Positions 763 to 40,933 of a DNA stretch of 40,933 bases are shown here, in pieces; the first letter of the stretch is position 1, and each line of letters begins with the position of its first letter. Source of the stretch: a virus. The notes beneath the pieces were generated by a model, which did not search any database, was not told the DNA's origin, and saw only the letters and a program-made list of their open reading frames with translations. The position numbers and the translations under genes were made by a program. The stretch lies in UHGV virus genome UHGV-0179541; one strand, 5' to 3'.

Positions 763-1086
763 ATGAAGTGGATAGTAATTGACACGATAATTCAACCTTC
801 ATGCGGCATATCTTTTTCAGCCATATGGGGTAATATGAAAATGATCATCTGGTATCAATCTACTATATTTCTCCCTCCTGGCAGTATATTTACACCGGTT
901 AAATCTGGAATTATCCTTAAAGATAAAGAATATCCTATTACTATTTATAACATCGCACCATTCAACAAGGATTTATGGAGTCTACTCAAAAGCAGTCAAG
1001 AGTGTCCTCCAGGAGAAAGAAAAATAATAAATAAATGTTTGCATAATAGTTGCATTATAAAAATATGCCCATATGGGCTCAAGTAA
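763..1086 (+). CDS. iraM: IraM-like anti-adaptor protein, chromosomal flank outside the prophage
   Basis: 107-aa ORF in AT-rich flank next to the displaced icd fragment; N-terminus [12 protein letters not shown] recalled as IraM/YcgW, which neighbours e14 in E. coli K-12. Recall only, not searched. Confidence 0.5.
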
Positions 1087-1142
1087 AGGGTTTTATATAA
1101 ATATGCTCGATATGCTATTAATAATACCTACATAAATAAAAC

Positions 1143-1165
1143 AACGGGCGTGTTATACGCCCGTT
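1143..1165. terminator. Hairpin AACGGGCG-N7-CGCCCGTT, terminator-like, shared by iraM and the ancestral icd 3' end
   Basis: Perfect 8-bp stem read directly; T-rich tract follows on the minus strand; near-copy of the hairpin after the functional icd stop. Confidence 0.5.
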
Positions 1166-1188
1166 GCAATATTAAACACATGTAGTGA

Positions 1189-1353
1189 TTACATGTTCTT
1201 GATGATCGCATCACCAAATTCTGAACATTTCAGCAGTTTAGCGCCTTCCATCAGACGCTCGAAGTCATAGGTTACGGTCTTCGCATTGATTGCGCCTTCC
1301 ATACCTTTAACAATCAGGTCTGCGGCTTCAGTCCAGCCCATATGGCGTAACAT
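1189..1353 (-). pseudogene. icdC: icdC: displaced 3' fragment of icd (last 54 codons plus stop) at the prophage/chromosome junction
   Basis: About 165 bp homologous to 40541..40705; translates to [54 protein letters not shown], identical to the C-terminus of the icd ORF at the window end; homology stops at 1353. Confidence 0.85.
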
Positions 1354-1494
1354 TAGATTTAGAAAATTATTATATCCAATTGAATTAAAACAATTTTATA
1401 CTTAACGAACATCTAAACTTGTTTTTTTACCTTCACCATAACTCGCTGATTTTGTATAGTTTACGTAGCGTTTTGATAACCACTTTATGGCAAA

Positions 1495-1824
1495 ATGGAG
1501 GTTCGCTTGAAAACTTCTGTTCTTATCCAGAAATTAATGGAAATTGACAAAACTGTACTATTCGATGCGGACGTAGTGACCGGTGAGGAATGGTGGCCAA
1601 CCCCGATTTCTCGTGTTTATCACAATCCGCCACATACTTATGTAGAATTTTAAACAGGTGAACAATCTCAAAATGAATCTGACGAGCTAAGTGTTTATAG
1701 CGAATTACAAATTTGTGCACATCGAATGATGCAAATTAGAGATTTTGTGCAATCTAACGAGGGACTGAAACCTGAAAAAATTGTTTCGGAAATAAACATT
1801 CAAATTGAACGTATTAAAAAGTGA
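1495..1824 (+). pseudogene. Small reading frame interrupted by one in-frame TAA (1651..1653): 52 codons, stop, 56 codons
   Basis: Hand translation: MEVRLKTSVLIQKLMEIDKTVLFDADVVTGEEWWPTPISRVYHNPPHTYVEF, stop, TGEQSQNESDELSVYSELQICAHRMMQIRDFVQSNEGLKPEKIVSEINIQIERIKK; absent from the ORF track because each half is under 60 aa. Confidence 0.3.
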
Positions 1825-1889
1825 TGGCTGAAGCAATTCTGAAACACTAATTCATATTCTATGTTATTCATACCAATGTGGATTTAACT

Positions 1890-1929
1890 CCCACCAACCC
1901 ACCAACCCACCAACCCACCAACCCACCAA
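1890..1929. repeat. Tandem repeat (CCCACCAA) x5, 8-bp unit
   Basis: Read directly: five perfect head-to-tail copies, about 260 bp upstream of the DUF262 gene start. Confidence 0.9.
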
Positions 1930-2187
1930 CCATGATTGGGCGGCGCAAGAAACTAATATCAATTAAAACAGCAAGTTATCAGTCTAAACAGAACACCAAC
2001 GGGATGGAGGAGAGACAAAAAATATCCAATGAAACCGTAGCGCGTCAGCATTCAAAAGCGGGGTTTCTTATTTTTACTTCACCAGTAACAAATACACTGT
2101 ATCATAACTACATAAAAATGATTGTTCTGACTCAGATGAATTTCTTACTCTTGTGGAATGTCACTTAATGTTATTTATAGGTAAACA

Positions 2188-4077
2188 ATGAAATCCGAAA
2201 CGCTAACCATCCAGCAAATTTTCCAAAATCAACGACAATATCGTGTTCCATTCTATCAACGTGCCTACGTATGGACGCAACGAAACCAATGGTCAGCTTT
2301 GTTGGAGGATATCTTCGAAAAAGCACAGAGCCGACTTTCGGGAACAAAACCAACCCCTCATTTCCTCGGCGCGGTGGTGCTGGAACCTCAACTCAAAAAC
2401 AGCTTGTTAGGTGTAGATACCATACATATTATTGACGGCCAGCAACGTTTAACCACTCTTCAATATATTCTGGCATCCATTCGATTATCATTGCGTGCTA
2501 CAGGCCTTTCTGAACTGGAAGGGTTAGTATTGACTTGCTTGAAAAATACAAACGAAGCAACGATGAGAAATAAAAAGGTAGAATGCTTCAAACTGTGGCC
2601 AACTTTTCGAGATCAAACTCATTTTATTCAAAGTCTTAATGTTGATAATATTGACGATCTCCGTAATGTATTTTCTGATAGCTTCACGCAACATGGTACG
2701 TTACGTAAACATTTCAACCACCCGCCGTCACTAGAGGCATTATGGTTTTTTACTGAAGCCTTTATAAAATGGATTAAAATAGAAAAACACTCACCACAAG
2801 AAAATGCTGTAGCACTAATTGAGGCTGTCTTGACGGATCTGAAACTGGTAAGCATATTTCTCGAAGCTGAAGATGATGCCCAAATAATTTTTGAAACATT
2901 AAATGGGCGAGGAGCGGAACTTCATGCAACGGATCTTATTCGCAACTATATCTTTATGTGCGCTGAGCATGAAAATATTAATGCTATTGAATTATATGAA
3001 AATGAGTGGAAGATCTTTGAAGATAAATACTGGTCGGAAAAGCAACGCCGTGGACGTATTAATAAACCACGCATGGAGTGGCTTGTACATGCGACATTGC
3101 AATCAGAAAGGCAGCGTGAAATTGATCTGTCTCGCCTTTACAATGAGTATCGTGATTATGTAAGTAAGGACTTGCCTTCACAACGAGCAGATCTGCAAGT
3201 AAAGCGCCTCAAACAATATGCATCACAATATAAAGAATTGGTTGGTGGTTTTGGCACAACCCCCATCTCACACTTTAGACATCGCATCGCAGCCTATGAT
3301 GTGACGACACTCTATCCGCTTGCTTTGTTCATTTCGATAGCTAACATCGCCGATGATGAGAAAGCAGCCATGTATAATGATCTTGTCTCCTACGTAGTAC
3401 GAAGATCCGTATGTGGCCTGACGCCAAAGAATTACAACAATGTATTTATGAATGTATTGCGACACTTGTCTAAAACGGAAATTTCCAGTGTTGAGTTACG
3501 TAATATCCTCAATAGCTTAAATGGCGAAGCCTCACGTTGGCCTGGGGACTCAGAATTTCTCAACGCTTGCATCAATGCTCCACTTTATCCTGGCAGGCTC
3601 GACGCACCGAAAATGCGCTCAATGTTAACGGAACTTGAAAGAGAACTTTGTCGCCAAGTGAAGACAGAAAAGCCTGATGTTCCAAATCTTTCTAATCTCG
3701 ATATCGATCATCTTATGCCTCAAAGTTGGTATTCCTGTTGGCCTCTCGAAAATGGTCATATGGTGACAAATTCAGATGCTACGGTAATGAACCAAATTGT
3801 TCTGTCTGGAACCGATCTTACCCCTGAACAGCTACTGGTAAGGAAACGGCAACAAGCGATAGCTACGTTGGGAAATCTAACTTTGCTTAACCTTAGCGTA
3901 AACCGTTCCGTTCAGAATGCTGTATTTCTGAAAAAACGTGATGCTCTCATCGTCCATACCAATCTACGACTGAACATACCACTTATACTTAAGGATAAAT
4001 GGGATGAGAGTGAAATACTGGAGCGAGGTAAAAAGTTGGGGGAAATTGCATTGAAAGTATGGCCAAAATACGATTAA
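2188..4077 (+). CDS. DUF262/DUF1524 two-domain protein, GmrSD-family type IV (modification-dependent) restriction endonuclease-like
   Basis: N-terminal motifs VPFYQRAYVW and IIDGQQRLTTL (DUF262 / ParB-like signature DGQQR); C-terminal DIDHLMPQS region consistent with the DUF1524 His-Me finger; AT-richer than phage core. Confidence 0.75.
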   Translation: MKSETLTIQQIFQNQRQYRVPFYQRAYVWTQRNQWSALLEDIFEKAQSRLSGTKPTPHFLGAVVLEPQLKNSLLGVDTIHIIDGQQRLTTLQYILASIRLSLRATGLSELEGLVLTCLKNTNEATMRNKKVECFKLWPTFRDQTHFIQSLNVDNIDDLRNVFSDSFTQHGTLRKHFNHPPSLEALWFFTEAFIKWIKIEKHSPQENAVALIEAVLTDLKLVSIFLEAEDDAQIIFETLNGRGAELHATDLIRNYIFMCAEHENINAIELYENEWKIFEDKYWSEKQRRGRINKPRMEWLVHATLQSERQREIDLSRLYNEYRDYVSKDLPSQRADLQVKRLKQYASQYKELVGGFGTTPISHFRHRIAAYDVTTLYPLALFISIANIADDEKAAMYNDLVSYVVRRSVCGLTPKNYNNVFMNVLRHLSKTEISSVELRNILNSLNGEASRWPGDSEFLNACINAPLYPGRLDAPKMRSMLTELERELCRQVKTEKPDVPNLSNLDIDHLMPQSWYSCWPLENGHMVTNSDATVMNQIVLSGTDLTPEQLLVRKRQQAIATLGNLTLLNLSVNRSVQNAVFLKKRDALIVHTNLRLNIPLILKDKWDESEILERGKKLGEIALKVWPKYD

Positions 4078-4099
4078 TGCAATTAATAAAATGATTATA

Positions 4100-4123
4100 G
4101 CGGCCTTACATTAGTAAGGCCGC
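4100..4123. terminator. Hairpin GCGGCCTTA-CATTAG-TAAGGCCGC between convergent genes
   Basis: Perfect 9-bp stem immediately after the DUF262 gene stop; the truncated invertase frame terminates inside the loop. Confidence 0.6.
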
Positions 4124-4338
4124 AACTCACTATTAAATCCTTTAATTTGCATCAAGAACAGCACTGTCAGCCCTAGGCTCTCGGACTTTGTACCGCTTAT
4201 CTTGTCTTCAAAAATCAGCTCGCATCCTGCACAGTTAAACGCATTACGTTGTAGATCGATTTTCTGGTCATTTGTTGATACGCAAACATAGCCAATAAGC
4301 ATGGTAGCTCCCTCTGACAAAAGCAGGAATGATGCCAT
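4111..4338 (-). pseudogene. Truncated serine DNA invertase (Pin/Gin/Hin family), N-terminal 75 codons only
   Basis: MLIGYVCVSTNDQKIDLQRNAFNCAGCELIFEDKISGT matches the invertase N-terminus including the catalytic-serine region; frame ends after about 75 aa where a full invertase is about 190 aa. Confidence 0.75.
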
Positions 4339-4718
4339 TTTCTCGTTATTTCTGCATTTTCATAAACGTTGGTTTGGGAGAATTATCTCTGGCTGGCACT
4401 GCATCGGGTGTCATTGGTCTGAATGGGTATGTAACGATTCCGTTAATTATTTCAGGTTCCCGGAGAACACTGATTATTCAGTGGGGGCAGGCGAGATTTG
4501 GTGGGTCTGGTGGTGAAGATGCCGGATATCTTAATGATTTTCCTTTTGCCTTTCCGTCAGCATGTTATGGAATGATAGTTAGTCATGTGGGGCATACACC
4601 TTCAGGCGCAGGAATCCTGTCGGCTTCTGCAATTACATCAAATCAGTTCCGCGGTTTTTCAAGCATAGCGACTGCTGCAAATGCTGTATTAGGTCGTTAT
4701 ATCGCTATAGGGGGTTAA
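4329..4718 (+). CDS. Silent alternative tail-fibre C-terminal cassette (inverted orientation); ORF start not meaningful
   Basis: Shares the LIIQWG junction and 17-bp inverted repeat with the expressed tail-fibre gene; followed by its own Tfa gene. Confidence 0.5.
   Translation: MMPFSRYFCIFINVGLGELSLAGTASGVIGLNGYVTIPLIISGSRRTLIIQWGQARFGGSGGEDAGYLNDFPFAFPSACYGMIVSHVGHTPSGAGILSASAITSNQFRGFSSIATAANAVLGRYIAIGG
4470..4486. repeat. Left inverted repeat CTGATTATTCAGTGGGG of the tail-fibre inversion segment
   Basis: Exact reverse complement of 5768..5784. Confidence 0.8.
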
Positions 4719-6192: not shown

Positions 6193-6777
6193 TTACTCCG
6201 GATATTTAAAAATTACGTAGGTATGCGACGGGCAGAGTTTGTTAAGCACACATTCGACAACTGTGTCGCCCCAGATACGCAGTGCGGAATCACAGGGATC
6301 GCCACATGTCATCCAGGTGGTGTTGGTGGCGGCTGGCATGTTGACCTGCCAGTAATACCGCCATTCAGGCGCGTTCACAGCGTCAGTACAGGCCGATGAG
6401 CAGGTGAACGTGCTTTTGTCGTATCGCGTGATGGTGGCATCTGGTCTGCCCAGGGCAGCAAGCTGTGCAAGATAAAAATCCTCGTTGATGCCGCCCGCCA
6501 GGTTAACCTTCGCATCCAGCCGTTGCTGACGCTGGCGAAGGGTCTGTGTCCCTGCGGGAATACATTCATCCGGCAGACCGCACAGACGCTCCCAGCGGTT
6601 TATCAGTTCAGTGGTGGTGCGCGGATCCAGCTCCCGCATCAGGGCATCCGCACGCTGATGAACGCGGGATAATGACGGTGCCGCACCGGCAATCGCCGGA
6701 TCGCTGGCTGACCACGCCGGACCGGGGGGCAACAGTGCCGACAACAGACGGATGTAATCATCGTTTGTCACGTCCAT
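6193..6777 (-). CDS. Baseplate protein, Mu gp48 / YmfQ-like (DUF2313)
   Basis: 194 aa; position and sequence consistent with the e14 YmfQ family. Confidence 0.6.
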
Positions 6778-31271: not shown

Positions 31272-31765
31272 TAAGCCCCCACGTAATTCCCTGACAGATA
31301 CCACTCTTCACCCGATGCAGCGCGCTTGCTGCTTTTCCGTAAGCACCGCTCACGACGCGCCAGAAAATTGTTTCGTTCTGGCTGGGAGTGGCTTTCACGG
31401 AATGCCGCCATCCACACCGTTGCAGCACGACGGTATAAGTCCCTGGACTCCAGTTCTTCAGCCTGGCGGATCAGGCACAAAATCACCCGCGGGTCGTTAG
31501 TGCCGACATAGAAATTGCGCACAGGTCTGGTTTCACGAACTGGTTGTGGTTCCGGCTCCTGCGCTCTCTCAGTCAGGCGCGGGAAATGTCTGCGTGTATC
31601 TCCTTCACAACGGTGAGCCACACGCCCACTCTGACGTAACTTGCTTGCTGACTGCAGAACGCGCTGCCGTGAGTAACCGGCAAAAGCATCCGCAATGTCT
31701 CCGGAAGTACAGCCCGGATGGGCTTCAATGAATTTCTGAACGTCATTTAACAGACTCATGATCAC
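31271..31765 (-). CDS. Hypothetical early protein downstream of the replication gene
   Basis: 164 aa, basic, translationally coupled to neighbours. Confidence 0.4.
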   Translation of the reverse strand: MIMSLLNDVQKFIEAHPGCTSGDIADAFAGYSRQRVLQSASKLRQSGRVAHRCEGDTRRHFPRLTERAQEPEPQPVRETRPVRNFYVGTNDPRVILCLIRQAEELESRDLYRRAATVWMAAFRESHSQPERNNFLARRERCLRKSSKRAASGEEWYLSGNYVGA

Positions 31766-32703
31766 CCCCTAAATCCTGCCGGGATCTGGCTGTAGTCCAC
31801 ATTGTCGTAACTGGCTTTGAAGTACGGGTCTTCACGTTTTTCTGTGTGCGTGCTGACGGACGGCGATAAGCGCAGGAAAAGCTCATCCCATTTTTCCCGC
31901 AACTTCGACGGGCTGAGCACGTTACGGCACCAGAACGGATCGCGGCTGACGCGGCTGTACATCTCGCAGATTTGTTTGTGAGTACGACCATCCTGCACAC
32001 ACATCAGGCGAATTTCGTTTGCCCAGGCTGTCCAGTTCGGTTCTTTGGGACGAATCACCTCGCCGTCACATTCGGCGGCCTGCTCGTACAGGGCGATGAT
32101 TTTTTTCCAGAGCCACTGTGCGCAGGTCAAATCATCCTGCGTTCCCCACTGACGCTTTTTAGGGCTGAATACAACCGCATCAGGATGGCGAGTTAAAAAA
32201 TCCTGTTCATCCGTCTGCGTGTCCGGTTGCGAAGCGTCCGGACGAGAAGTTTTTTTATCTGACGGATCATGTTTTGATTTTACTGACGGATCCCCGCCAG
32301 ATTCTGACGGGTGAAAACCCGCTTTTTTGCCAGATTTCGACGCATCAAATTTTGACGGGTCAGATTTTGATGCGTCAGATTTTGACGGGTCAGAATCTGA
32401 CAGTTGAGAAAATGCCGCTGCCTGAAGCTTCGCAACGTTAAGCTGATAAACATTCGACGCATTGCGGTTACCCTGGCGACGCGCCTTACGCGTTAACCAG
32501 CCTTCTGCTTCCAGCCGTGCGATAGCCGTTCTGACGGTACTCATCCCCGCGCCAATCTGGCGGGCAATGGTTTCAATTGATGGCCAGCACACACCTTCGT
32601 CATTACTGAAATCAGCCAGGCGGGCCATAATTGCCACGCTGGATAATTTCATGCCTGACGCAGCGCAACCATCCCATACATAGCCGGTTAATTTAGTGCT
32701 CAT
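31762..32703 (-). CDS. Replication initiation protein (O-like, N-terminal winged HTH, repetitive linker)
   Basis: 313 aa; HTH region; internal DPSKSDASKSDPSKFDASKSG repeats encoded by the iteron array. Confidence 0.6.
   Translation of the reverse strand: MSTKLTGYVWDGCAASGMKLSSVAIMARLADFSNDEGVCWPSIETIARQIGAGMSTVRTAIARLEAEGWLTRKARRQGNRNASNVYQLNVAKLQAAAFSQLSDSDPSKSDASKSDPSKFDASKSGKKAGFHPSESGGDPSVKSKHDPSDKKTSRPDASQPDTQTDEQDFLTRHPDAVVFSPKKRQWGTQDDLTCAQWLWKKIIALYEQAAECDGEVIRPKEPNWTAWANEIRLMCVQDGRTHKQICEMYSRVSRDPFWCRNVLSPSKLREKWDELFLRLSPSVSTHTEKREDPYFKASYDNVDYSQIPAGFRG
32255..32405. repeat. Iteron-like direct repeats (consensus near TCAGATTTTGACGGG) inside the replication gene, putative origin
   Basis: At least six related copies read directly. 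Confidence 0.6.
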
Positions 32704-35680: not shown

Positions 35681-35926
35681 ATGCTTCAAATGTTAACTCT
35701 TGAAGAATGGGCTACTGAAAAATACAGAAGCAATCCTCCAAGCGTGTCCACATTGCGTCGTTATGCTAAGCAGAATTTATTTTGCCCACCGGCCATGAAA
35801 CAAGGTCGGTTATGGCGAGTGCGTGAGGACGCCGAATTAGTTGGGGAGTTGGTAACGCCAATAATTAAGAAAAATGACTCATTACTTTTGCAACGGATTT
35901 TGAGTGATGGCAGCCAGACCGCGTAA
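35681..35926 (+). CDS. xis: Excisionase-like protein
   Basis: 81 aa overlapping the integrase start, the usual xis position. Confidence 0.55.
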   Translation: MLQMLTLEEWATEKYRSNPPSVSTLRRYAKQNLFCPPAMKQGRLWRVREDAELVGELVTPIIKKNDSLLLQRILSDGSQTA

Positions 35927-37034
35927 GAATAATGTTTCAGTCCCTAACTTATATCCGCTTTATAGTAGGAAGGTAAATAAAGTCTATTGGCGGTATAAGC
36001 ATCCAGTAACAGGAAAATTCCATGCTTTGGGAACAAACGAAGCTGAAGCTATCGCTATTGCCACTGAGGCCAACACTCGCCTGGCTGAACAAAGAACCCG
36101 GCAGATTCTGGCTATCAGTGACAGGATCGCAACCAGCAAAGGAAAGGCTATCACAACGTCAACCTGGTTAGATCGCTATCAAGCGATCCAGGATGACAGG
36201 CTTAAAAGTGGTGATATAAGACTCAACACCTATAAGCAAAAAGCTAAACCAGTATCCTTGCTCAGAGAACGAGCAGGAATGAAGTTGATCTCAGCCGTTG
36301 ATGTAAGAGATATAGCACAATTGCTTGACGAGTATATCGCTGCCGGGCAGCCGAGAATGGCGCAAGTCGTAAGGTCTGTATTGATCGATGTATTTAAGGA
36401 AGCACAGCATTATGGCGAAGTTCCGCCAGGGTATAACCCTGCTCTTGCGACGAAGCAACCCAGACGGAAAATTACCCGTCAACGCCTCAGCCTGGAAGAA
36501 TGGCAAAAAATATTCGATATCGCAGACGCCACTCATCGTTATATGGGAAATGCCATGCTCCTAGCTTTGGTCACTGGGCAGCGTTTGGGAGATATATCCA
36601 AAATGAAATTTAGTGATATTTGGGAGGATCATCTTCACGTCATTCAGGAAAAGACTGGAAGCAAAATCGCTATCCCTCTTTCTCTACGTTTGAATGCTAT
36701 CAATTGGAGCCTACGAGATGTAGTAGCTCGCTGCCGTGACTACGCAGTGAGCCCATACTTGGTGCATTTTTTCCGTTCAACCTCACAAGCAGAACGTGGT
36801 GCACAGGTTAAATCCAATACATTGACGATGAATTTTAGTAAAGCAAGGGATTTAGCAGGGATTGACTGGGGGGATGGCTCACCTGCCACATTCCATGAAC
36901 AAAGGTCTTTATCTGAACGCCTGTACAAAGAACAGGGGTTAGATACGCAAAAATTACTTGGTCATAAAACACAACAGCAGACCGATCGTTACCATGATGA
37001 TCGAGGCAAAGGATGGAGCAAAGTAGCATTGTGA
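35904..37034 (+). CDS. int: Tyrosine integrase (phage integrase family, icd-specific e14 / phage-21 type)
   Basis: 376 aa; C-terminal catalytic region ending HKTQQQTDRYHDDRG; prophage sits in icd. Confidence 0.85.
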   Translation: MMAARPRKNNVSVPNLYPLYSRKVNKVYWRYKHPVTGKFHALGTNEAEAIAIATEANTRLAEQRTRQILAISDRIATSKGKAITTSTWLDRYQAIQDDRLKSGDIRLNTYKQKAKPVSLLRERAGMKLISAVDVRDIAQLLDEYIAAGQPRMAQVVRSVLIDVFKEAQHYGEVPPGYNPALATKQPRRKITRQRLSLEEWQKIFDIADATHRYMGNAMLLALVTGQRLGDISKMKFSDIWEDHLHVIQEKTGSKIAIPLSLRLNAINWSLRDVVARCRDYAVSPYLVHFFRSTSQAERGAQVKSNTLTMNFSKARDLAGIDWGDGSPATFHEQRSLSERLYKEQGLDTQKLLGHKTQQQTDRYHDDRGKGWSKVAL

Positions 37035-38513: not shown

Positions 38514-39533
38514 TCAATTATTTTTTTTATCAATTATATGACCACTGTTAGTGCCATAATACTTACCAGAAGCAACACCTTGCTTATAAAAATCATTCAA
38601 TACTTTTATTAGCAATCGTGCATCTGATGCATCTTTTATTACTAGCCTACCATTTTTTTCCTCTAACTTAGCACCTTCGAATATATTTAACGTTTCTTGA
38701 TATTTTATTATTATGTCAGGACTTAAATTTTCGTGGTTCTTTTTTTGAGCTATGCTCGCAATAGTTCGCTGAAGTGTTTTATTAGTTAAAATAACCTCTT
38801 CCAGAATTTTTATATTATCTATAATAGAAGCATCAGAAATAACCTTTAACACACTTCTTGCATTTTCCACAAATTCTTTTTCGATCCCGATAATTTGTTC
38901 AAACCCCAATTTCGATACAATATAAATCTTGTTATTTTTAAAGATAAAATCTATTTTTTTGTCAAAACTCACTGTCTGCATCGGAACGACTTTCATTGTA
39001 GCACTATTAACATCAAAGATAGCCTGCATTTTTTGAAAGGTATTCAATGGAGTATCTGTTGCCACCTTAGATTTTGTTAGCTTCCTATAAATGGTAAAAC
39101 CATCATCTTGTGTAGATATTTTTAAACAAAAAGCCAATATATCAGACTTAACTTCCTCTAGACTCTTTAATATATTTATTCCTGAGCCTTTATTTATTTT
39201 TTCTAATACTTTCCTGAATTCAAGGTCTTCAATATTTGCATAACCATAAATAGCGTCAGTCCCATCATCAGAAATCACTGAGTAGTCATGATACTCTAAT
39301 TCGTTGTTGCCTACCATTTTGTTTAATGTATCCAATGACCCAGTTTTAAAAAAATCCACCATTTTTTTGTCAAGACTCACCTTATAGATATCAAATATAA
39401 ATCTGTTTTCTGATGAGACTGAAGAATCTTTATTAATTTTCTTTGTTATCAAATAACATTTCATCGAAAATGTATTCGAGTGATAAAGATTCATTAGTGA
39501 ATTTAAAATACCTTTAATGTCTATTTCCGTCAT
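38514..39533 (-). CDS. Soluble 339-aa cargo protein, second gene of the two-gene operon (Kiwa KwaB-like by layout only)
   Basis: Start ATG overlaps the upstream stop (TAATG); Lys/Asn/Ile-rich, no TM segment; very AT-rich. Confidence 0.55.
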   Translation of the reverse strand: MTEIDIKGILNSLMNLYHSNTFSMKCYLITKKINKDSSVSSENRFIFDIYKVSLDKKMVDFFKTGSLDTLNKMVGNNELEYHDYSVISDDGTDAIYGYANIEDLEFRKVLEKINKGSGINILKSLEEVKSDILAFCLKISTQDDGFTIYRKLTKSKVATDTPLNTFQKMQAIFDVNSATMKVVPMQTVSFDKKIDFIFKNNKIYIVSKLGFEQIIGIEKEFVENARSVLKVISDASIIDNIKILEEVILTNKTLQRTIASIAQKKNHENLSPDIIIKYQETLNIFEGAKLEEKNGRLVIKDASDARLLIKVLNDFYKQGVASGKYYGTNSGHIIDKKNN

Positions 39534-40153
39534 TATTCTAATTCCTGATATTTAGCATAGAAGAGTTTGTAACCAATCTTTTGAATTTTGATACTGTCAT
39601 CTTCGTCCAAATATTTATTCGAACAAATTATCATTCCTTTCTTTTTTTGGCCGCCACTATTTATATACTCAATGCTGTAAAGTGAGTACTTTATAGCTAA
39701 AGTTGGATTTATAAGAATCATTGATGAGTTAGAATAAATAAGAAATGTAACCAGTAGCAGAATAGCTAAAGAAAATACACTCATGGGGTCAGAAAGATCT
39801 TGAAAAAGAAATGGCAGAAGATATGTAAAAAGATAACTTATAGATTCACTGTTTTTATTTTCTATGTCGACTATTTTTACAAAATCCCCATCATTATCAA
39901 TGCGTCTTTCCATATTTGATAATAAGAATATTAAACCAACAATACCAAAAACGACAAGAAGAAATATAATCGTAACCGCACCAAAATTTTCAATGTATAA
40001 TATTAATGCCTTCTTGTTCACCCCCCCCCAGTTGAGGTAATCTTTTTTCTTGTATAGTTGATTTACGGTCATAATTAAAAACAAAGGCATGTAAGACACC
40101 AAAAATAGTGTCAACCTTGCTCCTATTTTTAACTCTTCTTTTCGTGATGACAT
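39533..40153 (-). CDS. Four-helix membrane protein, first gene of the two-gene operon (Kiwa KwaA-like by layout only)
   Basis: Hydrophobic helices at roughly aa 20-37, 63-86, 111-125 and 131-148 of the track ORF; probable ATG start at 40153 after GAGG; contains the G9 tract. Confidence 0.55.
   Translation of the reverse strand: MSSRKEELKIGARLTLFLVSYMPLFLIMTVNQLYKKKDYLNWGGVNKKALILYIENFGAVTIIFLLVVFGIVGLIFLLSNMERRIDNDGDFVKIVDIENKNSESISYLFTYLLPFLFQDLSDPMSVFSLAILLLVTFLIYSNSSMILINPTLAIKYSLYSIEYINSGGQKKKGMIICSNKYLDEDDSIKIQKIGYKLFYAKYQELE
40021..40029. repeat. Homopolymer tract, 9 C on plus strand (G9 in the membrane-protein coding strand)
   Basis: Read directly; encodes WGGV. Confidence 0.9.
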
Positions 40154-40438
40154 AGTTCCAAAACCTCGAATCAACGCTTTCTTAGGTACTGATAACTGTA
40201 CCTAGTTTAACCTATAATATCTATGCAACATATTGATATATTGGTTAAAATTCCTTCTTTGATATCCCCTTACTTTCCCATTGATCAGTATGAAAAAACG
40301 TGAGCAATGTCCGTTATTGGCACTGAACGGACCTAAATATTAACGAGCATCCACCTGAAATGATCATAAAAAACTGAGGTATGCCTAATTGGAACTAGGT
40401 AATAGGGCTACCCTCTGAACATCCAAACTACTAGGGGG

Positions 40439-40471: not shown

Positions 40472-40494
40472 CCGTTAGCAGCCTAACAAAAAAC

Positions 40495-40517
40495 AACGGG
40501 AGCGTTACGCTCCCGTT
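40495..40517 (-). terminator. Rho-independent terminator of icd (AACGGGAGCG-TTAC-GCTCCCGTT)
   Basis: Hairpin immediately after the icd stop, followed by a T run on the minus strand. Confidence 0.75.
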
Positions 40518-40540
40518 AATAAATTTAACAAACAACGGCA

Positions 40541-40933
40541 TTACATGTTTTTGATGATTGCGTCGCCAAACTCGCTACATTTCAGCAGTTTAGCACCTTC
40601 CATCAGACGTTCAAAATCGTAAGTTACGGTCTTGGCGTTGATCGCGCCTTCCATACCTTTAACAATTAAATCAGCCGCTTCGGTCCAACCCATGTGGCGT
40701 AACATCATCTCAGCGGAGAGAATAATAGAGCCAGGGTTTACTTTGTCCTGACCGGCGTATTTCGGCGCAGTACCGTGGGTGGCTTCAAACAGGGCGCATT
40801 CGTCACCGATGTTTGCTCCAGGGGCGATACCGATACCGCCAACCTGCGCTGCCAGAGCGTCAGAAATGTAGTCACCGTTCAGGTTCATACAGGCGATAAC
40901 ATCATATTCAGCCGGACGCAGCAGGATCTGTTG
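40541..40933 (-). CDS. icd: Isocitrate dehydrogenase, 3' portion (gene continues beyond the window)
   Basis: C-terminal sequence [38 protein letters not shown]; ORF open to the window edge. Confidence 0.9.

Follow-up and report, generated by a model that had tools for sequence, protein, structure and literature searches.

Variable-number tandem repeats (VNTRs), or minisatellites, of the kind used for E. coli MLVA are built of perfect short units and differ by whole units on identical flanks. In Haemophilus, Neisseria and Helicobacter, phase-variable repeats control restriction-modification genes; these repeats lie inside the open reading frame (ORF) or in the promoter, and they stay with the gene. 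The e14 element of E. coli K-12 is an icd insertion with an iraM-icdC junction that carries a type IV restriction gene beside pin and tail-fibre genes. For the tmRNA gene ssrA, Williams in 2003 reportedly described that integrating elements supply a replacement ssrA end. Elements that integrate at ssrA leave copies of its 3' end (PMC3146451), and the 2003 study by Williams is cited both there and in PMC7545054. The locus that we describe here, an array of an 8-bp unit ahead of a type IV restriction gene in an icd prophage, shares features with each of these systems.

The stretch of DNA under analysis (the window) is UHGV-0179541 with a length of 40,933 nt, and all window coordinates refer to this whole stretch. 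On its plus strand, five perfect units of CCCACCAA follow one another head to tail at 1890..1929, and a partial unit, CC, at 1930..1931 completes the array (1890..1931). Direct reading is matched by TRF, which returns 1890..1931 with a period of 8, 5.2 copies, 100% matches and a score of 84, and even three consecutive units gave 0 matches in 100 dinucleotide-preserving shuffles of the window. The perfect five-fold 8-bp repeat reported in the initial annotation is therefore real, and its placement was right as well: from the array end to the ATG of the DUF262 gene (2188) there are 256 bp, given earlier as about 260 bp, and the small ORF just before the array is indeed interrupted, having an in-frame TAA and a shifted C-terminus (1495..1824). 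A regex scan over 148 kb, comprising the window and eight non-redundant related loci, found no second perfect array of 4-12-bp units with at least four copies.

A coding role was considered and rejected: the two ORFs that touch or follow the array, a 96-aa GTG ORF (1878..2168) and a 78-aa ATG ORF (1932..2168), belong to no family, neither is conserved, and the homologous stretch of the related icd island L003 carries a 2-bp indel. PGAP places no annotation here in any of the genomes with the locus. No known RNA was recognised at the array when 1100..4400 was scanned against Rfam by E-value, and ARAGORN detected no tRNA or tmRNA gene in the window. Neither the repeat sequence itself nor the unit combined with "tandem repeat" and E. 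coli led to a paper, no GenBank phage record matched the module of small ORF and repeat at the DNA or protein level, and a pattern scan of species-representative genomes returned two unrelated chance matches only.

The locus is present in 55 of 5426 complete E. coli genomes (~1%). Copy number, taken from the matched span of a 261-bp query (237, 245, 253, 261, 269, 277 or 309 bp), is two or three in 14 genomes each, four in 7, five in 4, six in 13, seven in 1 and eleven in 2, counts that come from genomes that are not independent samples. One further span, of 243 bp in locus L017, is a three-copy span shortened by a 2-bp flank deletion outside the array. Arrays were also read directly in 17 fetched loci, and all counts agree with the spans; eight IMG/VR contigs hold 2, 3, 3, 3, 4, 4, 4 and 7 copies. 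The array is a true VNTR, with perfect head-to-tail copies and whole-unit variation between near-identical sequences. Strains A42 (four copies) and EC28 (three copies) align over 5653 bp with zero mismatches and one 8-bp gap, and the window (five copies) aligns with CFSAN061769 (four copies) over 4600 bp with six mismatches and, again, one 8-bp gap. Copy numbers of 3, 4, 5 and 6 occur within one flank haplotype group and 2, 4, 5 and 6 within another, where mismatch counts are upper bounds, as the right flank enters a divergent invertible tail-fibre segment. Since alleles differ on near-identical backgrounds, the array must be far more mutable than the bases that surround it. The earlier expectation of a slipped-strand substrate is thus borne out by arrays of 2-11 copies on identical or near-identical flanks in the 55 genomes and eight contigs: the comparison across related genomes that had been proposed shows variation in whole 8-bp units, so copy number is not invariant.

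Variant units give some insight into how these changes came about. The variant CCCATCAA occupies the third position of an 11-copy as well as of a 6-copy allele, which places the difference between the two in the pure tract behind it. In strain H22 it is a variant unit, CCCACTAA, that has been amplified, and one three-copy lineage is recognisable by a variant first unit, CCCACCCA. We infer replication slippage as the mechanism by which the array probably gains and loses 8-bp units. In five apparently near-clonal genome pairs (clonality being judged from names and record lengths) the two members share one allele, and nothing in the genome comparison suggests that copy number switches as rapidly as in classical phase variation. 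Repeats can be miscounted in long-read assemblies, and one might ask whether the copy-number differences are assembly errors; this is next to untenable, as the differences are exact multiples of 8 except for the flank deletion outside the array in L017, the alleles recur in many independent assemblies and in IMG/VR contigs, and variant units are inherited consistently.

The array belongs to a prophage. The chromosomal flank is marked by iraM (763..1086, plus strand), a 107-aa ORF annotated as such in related genomes, in a region 94.5% identical to the iraM/icdC region of K-12. It is followed by the attachment junction, marked by a displaced icd 3' end that resembles icdC (1189..1353, minus strand) and translates into the icd C-terminus; PGAP annotates a partial isocitrate dehydrogenase at this position in all related loci. 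A weak Rfam match to tpke11 (1114..1184, minus strand; 26.4 bits against a gathering score of 43, E 0.01) overlaps a terminator-like hairpin at 1141..1167 after icdC and probably represents the icd terminator rather than an sRNA gene. The other junction is the phage-borne 3' end of the functional icd gene (40490..40705, minus strand), 82.9% identical to K-12 icdC; from here the icd frame runs on to the end of the window. A lambda-type tyrosine integrase at the icd end (35904..37034, plus strand; Pfam Arm-DNA-bind_1 and Phage_integrase) is the sole integrase among the window ORFs scanned. The iraM-icdC and icd junctions together place the repeat in a prophage of ~39 kb integrated at icd, close to the end away from the integrase. 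In H22 (L005 1..5300) and VTB97584v (L010 1..5300), a second lambdoid prophage with gam, bet, exo, xis and int lies against the icdC fragment, in tandem with the GmrSD element, so that the icd site is occupied twice.

Beyond window 1363 no K-12 homology is seen until the tail-fibre genes; the mcrA module of K-12 is thus replaced in the window by the small ORF, the repeat and the GmrSD gene. K-12 e14 was for this reason discarded as a template for the array region, there being no homology between window 1364 and 4166. The right border of this cargo slot is a truncated pin-type invertase (4111..4338, minus strand), of which Pfam recognises the Resolvase N-terminal domain only and which PGAP calls "recombinase family protein, incomplete". 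The same 75-aa N-terminal fragment is found in the window and in all GmrSD-carrying relatives, and with the invertase truncated the tail-fibre inversion switch of the prophage is probably frozen. To the right of it, the tail-fibre segment is oriented differently and differs in content from strain to strain. A Kiwa defence pair is encoded on the minus strand between the integrase and the icd junction, KwaB (38514..39533) and KwaA (39533..40174), both with strong PADLOC matches; with GmrSD at one end and Kiwa at the other, the prophage carries defence genes at both ends. In K-12 e14, Lit and McrA occupy the equivalent places. Two further repeats were observed in the window. A run of nine C at 40021..40029 (G9 on the coding strand) falls inside the KwaA frame; such a homopolymer is slippage-prone and could switch Kiwa off and on. 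A tandem repeat with a 15-bp unit, CAGATTTTGACGGGT, of 4.3 copies (also readable as 30 bp x 2.1) occupies 32331..32394 inside a 313-aa ORF (31762..32703, minus strand) and looks like the iterons of a lambdoid replication origin in an O-type gene.

The ancestry of the array can be traced to ssrA. In a sensitive BLAST search with window 1400..2040 as query, the hits in ~1600 E. coli genomes were confined to window 1914..2022, which matches the ssrA 3' end and the DNA downstream of it (74-77% identity, E 4e-10). The ssrA gene of strain JJ1887, which ends in ...GCGGGTTCAACTCCCGCCAGCTCCACCA followed by ATCATGATTGGACGG..., harbours a 46-kb lambdoid prophage. The 26-nt core GGGTTCAACTCCCGCCAGCTCCACCA is present at both borders of this prophage, and each core precedes a similar trailer of ~150 nt with an intrinsic terminator, AAAGCCCGC...GCGGGCTTTTT, at its end. 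The presence of core, trailer and terminator at both borders implies that the phage supplies a replacement ssrA end together with its trailer and terminator.

The alignment with the window runs through ssrA ...GGGTTCAACTCCCGCCAGCTCCACCA|ATCATGATTGG, and the two sequences can be compared base for base: the window reads GTGGATTTAACT-(CCCACCAA)n-CC-ATGATTGGGCGG..., and ssrA reads GCGGGTTCAACT-CCCGCCAG-CTCCACCAA-TC-ATGATTGGACGG. The first of these blocks (1878..1889, plus strand) is a decayed T-arm part of the ssrA 3'-end copy, GTGGATTTAACT, which aligns with GCGGGTTCAACT in the ssrA of JJ1887 and with GTGGGTTCAACT in related prophages. The array itself has its counterpart in ...CCCGCCAG CTCCACCA(A) of ssrA, and the two-copy allele CCCACCAA-CCCACCAA corresponds directly to CCCGCCAG-CTCCACCAA, from which it is separated by two G-to-A transitions, a T-to-C change and the loss of one base. 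Behind the array, BLAST and alignments identify a diverged copy of the ssrA trailer (1932..2074, plus strand) that ends in the relic of a terminator; the homology reaches as far as AAAGCCCGC..GCGGGCTTTTT, where the window has a 9-nt gap. A module junction exactly at the array was also considered and ruled out, since homology to L003 and ssrA continues for ~90-145 bp past it. Judged from these alignments, the array together with the ~145 bp behind it represents a diverged copy of the 3' end of ssrA with its trailer and terminator. The window core shows ~7 differences from ssrA in 28 positions before the expansion, which interrupts it. Attachment cores at ssrA lie at an element border and have a second copy at the other border; the core of the window lies within a prophage whose limits are icd and icdC, and the window holds no second copy. 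The array thus appears to derive from an ssrA attachment core but no longer to qualify as one, being diverged, internal and devoid of a partner copy.

Related prophages preserve what seem to be the intermediate forms. A search of IMG/VR with the intact small-ORF protein of L003 returned 18 loci, and wherever the upstream DNA is present the order is icdC, ~140 bp, the small ORF, ~45 nt, the ssrA core, trailer, terminator and a variable cargo. The icdC copies of these relatives are only 79-89% identical to that of the window, so these prophages probably come from other enterobacteria. An icd-integrating e14-like family, seemingly of several enterobacterial hosts, has an ssrA end, trailer and terminator following a conserved 113-aa ORF, with the ssrA-like segment at 6479..6700 in L003, at 384..600 in L037 (as an example of L032-L041) and at 1878..2074 in the window. 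The 26-nt core is intact (26/26) in L003, L033 and L037-L040, whereas L032 and L041 have a slightly damaged version. The L034-36 group has CCCGCCAG-CCCACCAA in this place, where the T is already lost and the two 8-mers differ at two positions, and the two-copy allele is seen in L018 and L019. The stretch GGGTTCAACTCCCGC is invariant in nine distinct family members. The segment of these relatives matches in its apparent layout the attP of an ssrA-integrating phage, although the elements sit in icd, and the perfect core in related phages indicates that the ancestral segment is not junk everywhere, a point against neutrality.

When L003 6330..7600 is compared with L032 and with 463..1560 of L022 (JJ1887), its 150 nt ahead of the ssrA core match L032 exactly, but the DNA behind the core does not; the stretch from the core as far as the RnlB gene shares 100% identity with the end of the prophage in the ssrA of JJ1887. 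This places a breakpoint of recombination between an icd and an ssrA prophage at the core, which suggests that cargo is exchanged through the ssrA-like segment. What lies between this segment and pin varies: GmrSD in the window (2188..4077), McrA at the equivalent place in K-12 (L004), RnlAB with a small ORF in L022 (789..2621), a type ISP restriction-modification gene with GmrSD in L021 (1..5583), and DUF4236, an SRAP peptidase and an AAA protein in L032 (688..4339). From its contents, the slot looks like a hotspot for defence and other cargo.

Both the breakpoint at the core in L003 and the perfect 26-nt ssrA core kept by relatives in an attP-like layout could be taken to mean that the array region is a still-functional secondary attachment site, used in trans by an ssrA-specific integrase. 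For the window this is barely credible, given a core that is ~7/28 different from ssrA and interrupted by the expansion, and given that the one integrase found among the scanned ORFs is that of the icd end.

The core has decayed together with its neighbours. The small ORF ahead of it (1495..1824, plus strand) is a pseudogene in the window, with TAA at 1651..1653 where relatives read GAA. This stop and the C-terminal shift recur in every repeat-bearing locus, with a second stop in one haplotype group, and the ORF is intact with 113 aa in all checked relatives that have an unexpanded core (L003 and L034-L041). Its protein has no Pfam, PHROG or PADLOC match, and an NCBIfam match to VC1380_fam is sub-threshold. 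A promoter-like site ahead of it (1432..1460, plus strand; TTCACC-17-TATAGT, 9/12, a consensus match only) keeps its -10 hexamer unchanged in L003. The trailer of the repeat-bearing lineage has only ~75% identity to ssrA trailers, and the 9-nt gap removes the 5' half of its terminator stem. The expanded array is found only in the lineage with the GmrSD gene. Altogether, the diverged core, the broken ORF and the deleted terminator stem amount to a joint decay in the one GmrSD-carrying lineage.

From these observations we propose the following sequence of events. An icd-integrating e14-like family carries the ssrA 3' end, from the T-loop to CCA, with its trailer and terminator beside a cargo slot. 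In the GmrSD lineage this stretch is no longer maintained, in keeping with a core that has diverged about as far as the trailer, and the last ~16 bases of the ssrA copy probably decayed into two perfect units, CCCACCAA-CCCACCAA. Slippage then probably expanded these two units to as many as 11. The array itself is most likely without function, its copy number simply drifting. The ancestral segment may be a fossil attP that stayed behind when integration modules were exchanged, a history that we infer, or it may have been kept ssrA-like by recombination with ssrA-resident prophages. With the polymorphism, the series of homologous forms and the decay around the array all observed, we put at roughly 70% the probability that it is a neutral remnant of an ssrA-type attachment-site core, prone to slippage. 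The initial annotation had offered the array as a scar of the insertion that brought in the restriction gene. This idea holds in part, in that the array appears to mark a decayed ssrA-type attachment core beside the cargo slot; a simple footprint of the GmrSD insertion it does not seem to be.

The other role proposed earlier, modulation of the restriction gene, has to be weighed against this neutral reading. The gene downstream, annotated DUF262, encodes a GmrSD-family type IV restriction enzyme (2188..4077, plus strand; Pfam and PADLOC). Its 629-aa ORF has both domains that characterise the family, DUF262/GmrSD_N (Pfam GmrSD_N, 1.4e-33) and the DUF1524/GmrSD_C nuclease (GmrSD_C, 3.8e-19), and matches PADLOC mREase_IV over its full length with 1516 bits. 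The array is on the strand of this gene and only 256 bp ahead of it, and both points speak against neutrality. Being hypervariable as well, it could be a contingency locus, whose copy number alters GmrSD expression through spacing or helical phase or through a promoter that spans the array; the repeat-controlled restriction-modification genes of Haemophilus, Neisseria and Helicobacter lend general plausibility to this idea, and the two-copy allele does form a very weak promoter-like pair, TTTAAC-18-CATGAT, across the array. We nevertheless regard such control as unlikely. A GmrSD homologue recurs without the array, together with ~200 bp of its upstream DNA, at another chromosomal locus in 28 genomes, so that the repeat does not stay with the gene; window 1988..2300 is ~91% identical to the upstream region there. 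That array-free locus adjoins a type ISP restriction-modification gene and the same pin and tail-fibre module. The best promoter-like site (2078..2105, plus strand; TTCACC-16-TATCAT, a consensus match only) falls inside the ~200-bp region that travels with GmrSD. The array, for its part, overlaps no conserved ORF and no promoter-like site of the scan, nor does it lie between the -35 and -10 hexamers of any scanned promoter, which sets it apart from contingency repeats in an ORF or in or beside a promoter. Every copy-number class, and every class modulo 3, occurs alongside an intact GmrSD gene. In addition, the array seems to have been born from a decaying att relic beside a pseudogene, and the sharing of one allele within near-clonal pairs argues against very high switching rates. 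The position outside ORFs and promoters, the occurrence of all modulo-3 classes and the array-free cassette, to which the decaying surroundings may be added, thus lend no support to control of GmrSD by the array, and the suggested modulation finds no backing in these comparisons.

A subtler influence on GmrSD might act at the level of transcript or template. The terminator between array and gene, an intrinsic terminator that follows in relatives and is damaged in the window, looks broken, so that read-through effects are possible. Two properties of the array count against neutrality in this respect. Its plus strand is composed of 27 C and 15 A with no G and no T, which would give a C-rich, G-free RNA like a Rho loading site, and its minus strand carries a canonical G3N5 quadruplex motif (predicted by four G3 tracts with loops of 1-7 nt on one strand) in alleles with at least four copies and not in those with two or three. 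Untranslated RNA favours Rho entry, the established mechanism of polarity, and the upstream ORF would be untranslated beyond codon 52. The array could on these grounds be a variable-length RNA element for Rho loading, or a DNA element forming a template quadruplex, that tunes read-through into GmrSD. We hold this to be very unlikely: the predicted fold of 1878..2090 is no more stable than that of shuffles (z = 0.93), Rfam has no match, transcription through the array is an assumption, and both the decay and the independent GmrSD cassette also speak against it. The related speculation that array length (2-11) acts as a population-level tuning knob for GmrSD read-through, via the Rho tract or the quadruplex of alleles with at least four copies, appears quite improbable to us.

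The minus strand of the array also invites a comparison with Chi. At every unit junction it reads directly GTTGGTGG, one mismatch away from Chi, 5'-GCTGGTGG-3', so that the junctions are not Chi sites by identity; the activity reported for this variant is weak. Several copies might still attenuate RecBCD and so promote recombination or protection on the prophage side, and a small residual hotspot activity of GTTGGTGG was found in a lambda assay, namely 2.1 as compared with 14.1 for Chi (PMC5041463). In that study Chi was changed to GTTGGTGG in order to demonstrate that hotspot activity depends on the Chi sequence itself; the drop in activity to ~2 counts against such a role (PMC5041463). Two-copy alleles are, moreover, as common as long ones, and we rate a Chi-like function of the array as highly improbable. 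To our knowledge, tandem copies of GTTGGTGG have not been the subject of any such assay.

What the neutral relic may be relevant for lies in its history and its surroundings. The locus provides a worked example of how a tandem repeat could be born, from an unneeded att core through two identical 8-mers to expansion, with intermediates visible in relatives. As a hypervariable marker in a defence-carrying prophage it could serve to sub-type carrier strains, and it could be miscounted in assemblies. Arguably more interesting is the ssrA attP-like segment of the icd prophages, located beside a slot that houses McrA, GmrSD, RnlAB or type ISP restriction-modification genes; the breakpoint at this segment suggests how defence cargo may move between prophages that use different insertion sites. 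Should the array tune GmrSD after all, it would be a rare E. coli example of a defence gene governed by a repeat, a slippage-controlled defence gene built from a recycled fragment of the tmRNA gene.

Seen against the described systems, the array resembles the phase-variable repeats of restriction-modification genes in being a hypermutable short repeat beside a restriction gene. It differs from them in its position, 256 bp upstream and outside ORFs, and in its absence from the other cassette of the gene. The window shares with K-12 e14 the icd insertion, the iraM-icdC junction and a type IV restriction gene beside pin and tail-fibre genes, whereas e14 has no sequence in common with window 1364..4166 and carries mcrA and no repeat. 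With the attachment cores of ssrA, of which the same copy stands on both sides of the JJ1887 prophage, the array locus has in common the segment from the T-loop to the CCA end and the trailer; unlike them it lies inside an icd prophage, is decayed, and seems to owe its repetition to 8-bp slippage and not to successive integrations. The closest likeness in behaviour is to bacterial VNTR loci of the E. coli MLVA kind, with which the array shares its perfect short units, its whole-unit variation on identical flanks and the propagation of variant units within the repeat. In contrast to the usual VNTR, it sits in an accessory prophage (55 of 5426 genomes) and its ancestry is traceable to a fragment of the tmRNA gene. 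What appears to be new is thus a VNTR whose birth from such a fragment is unusually well documented.
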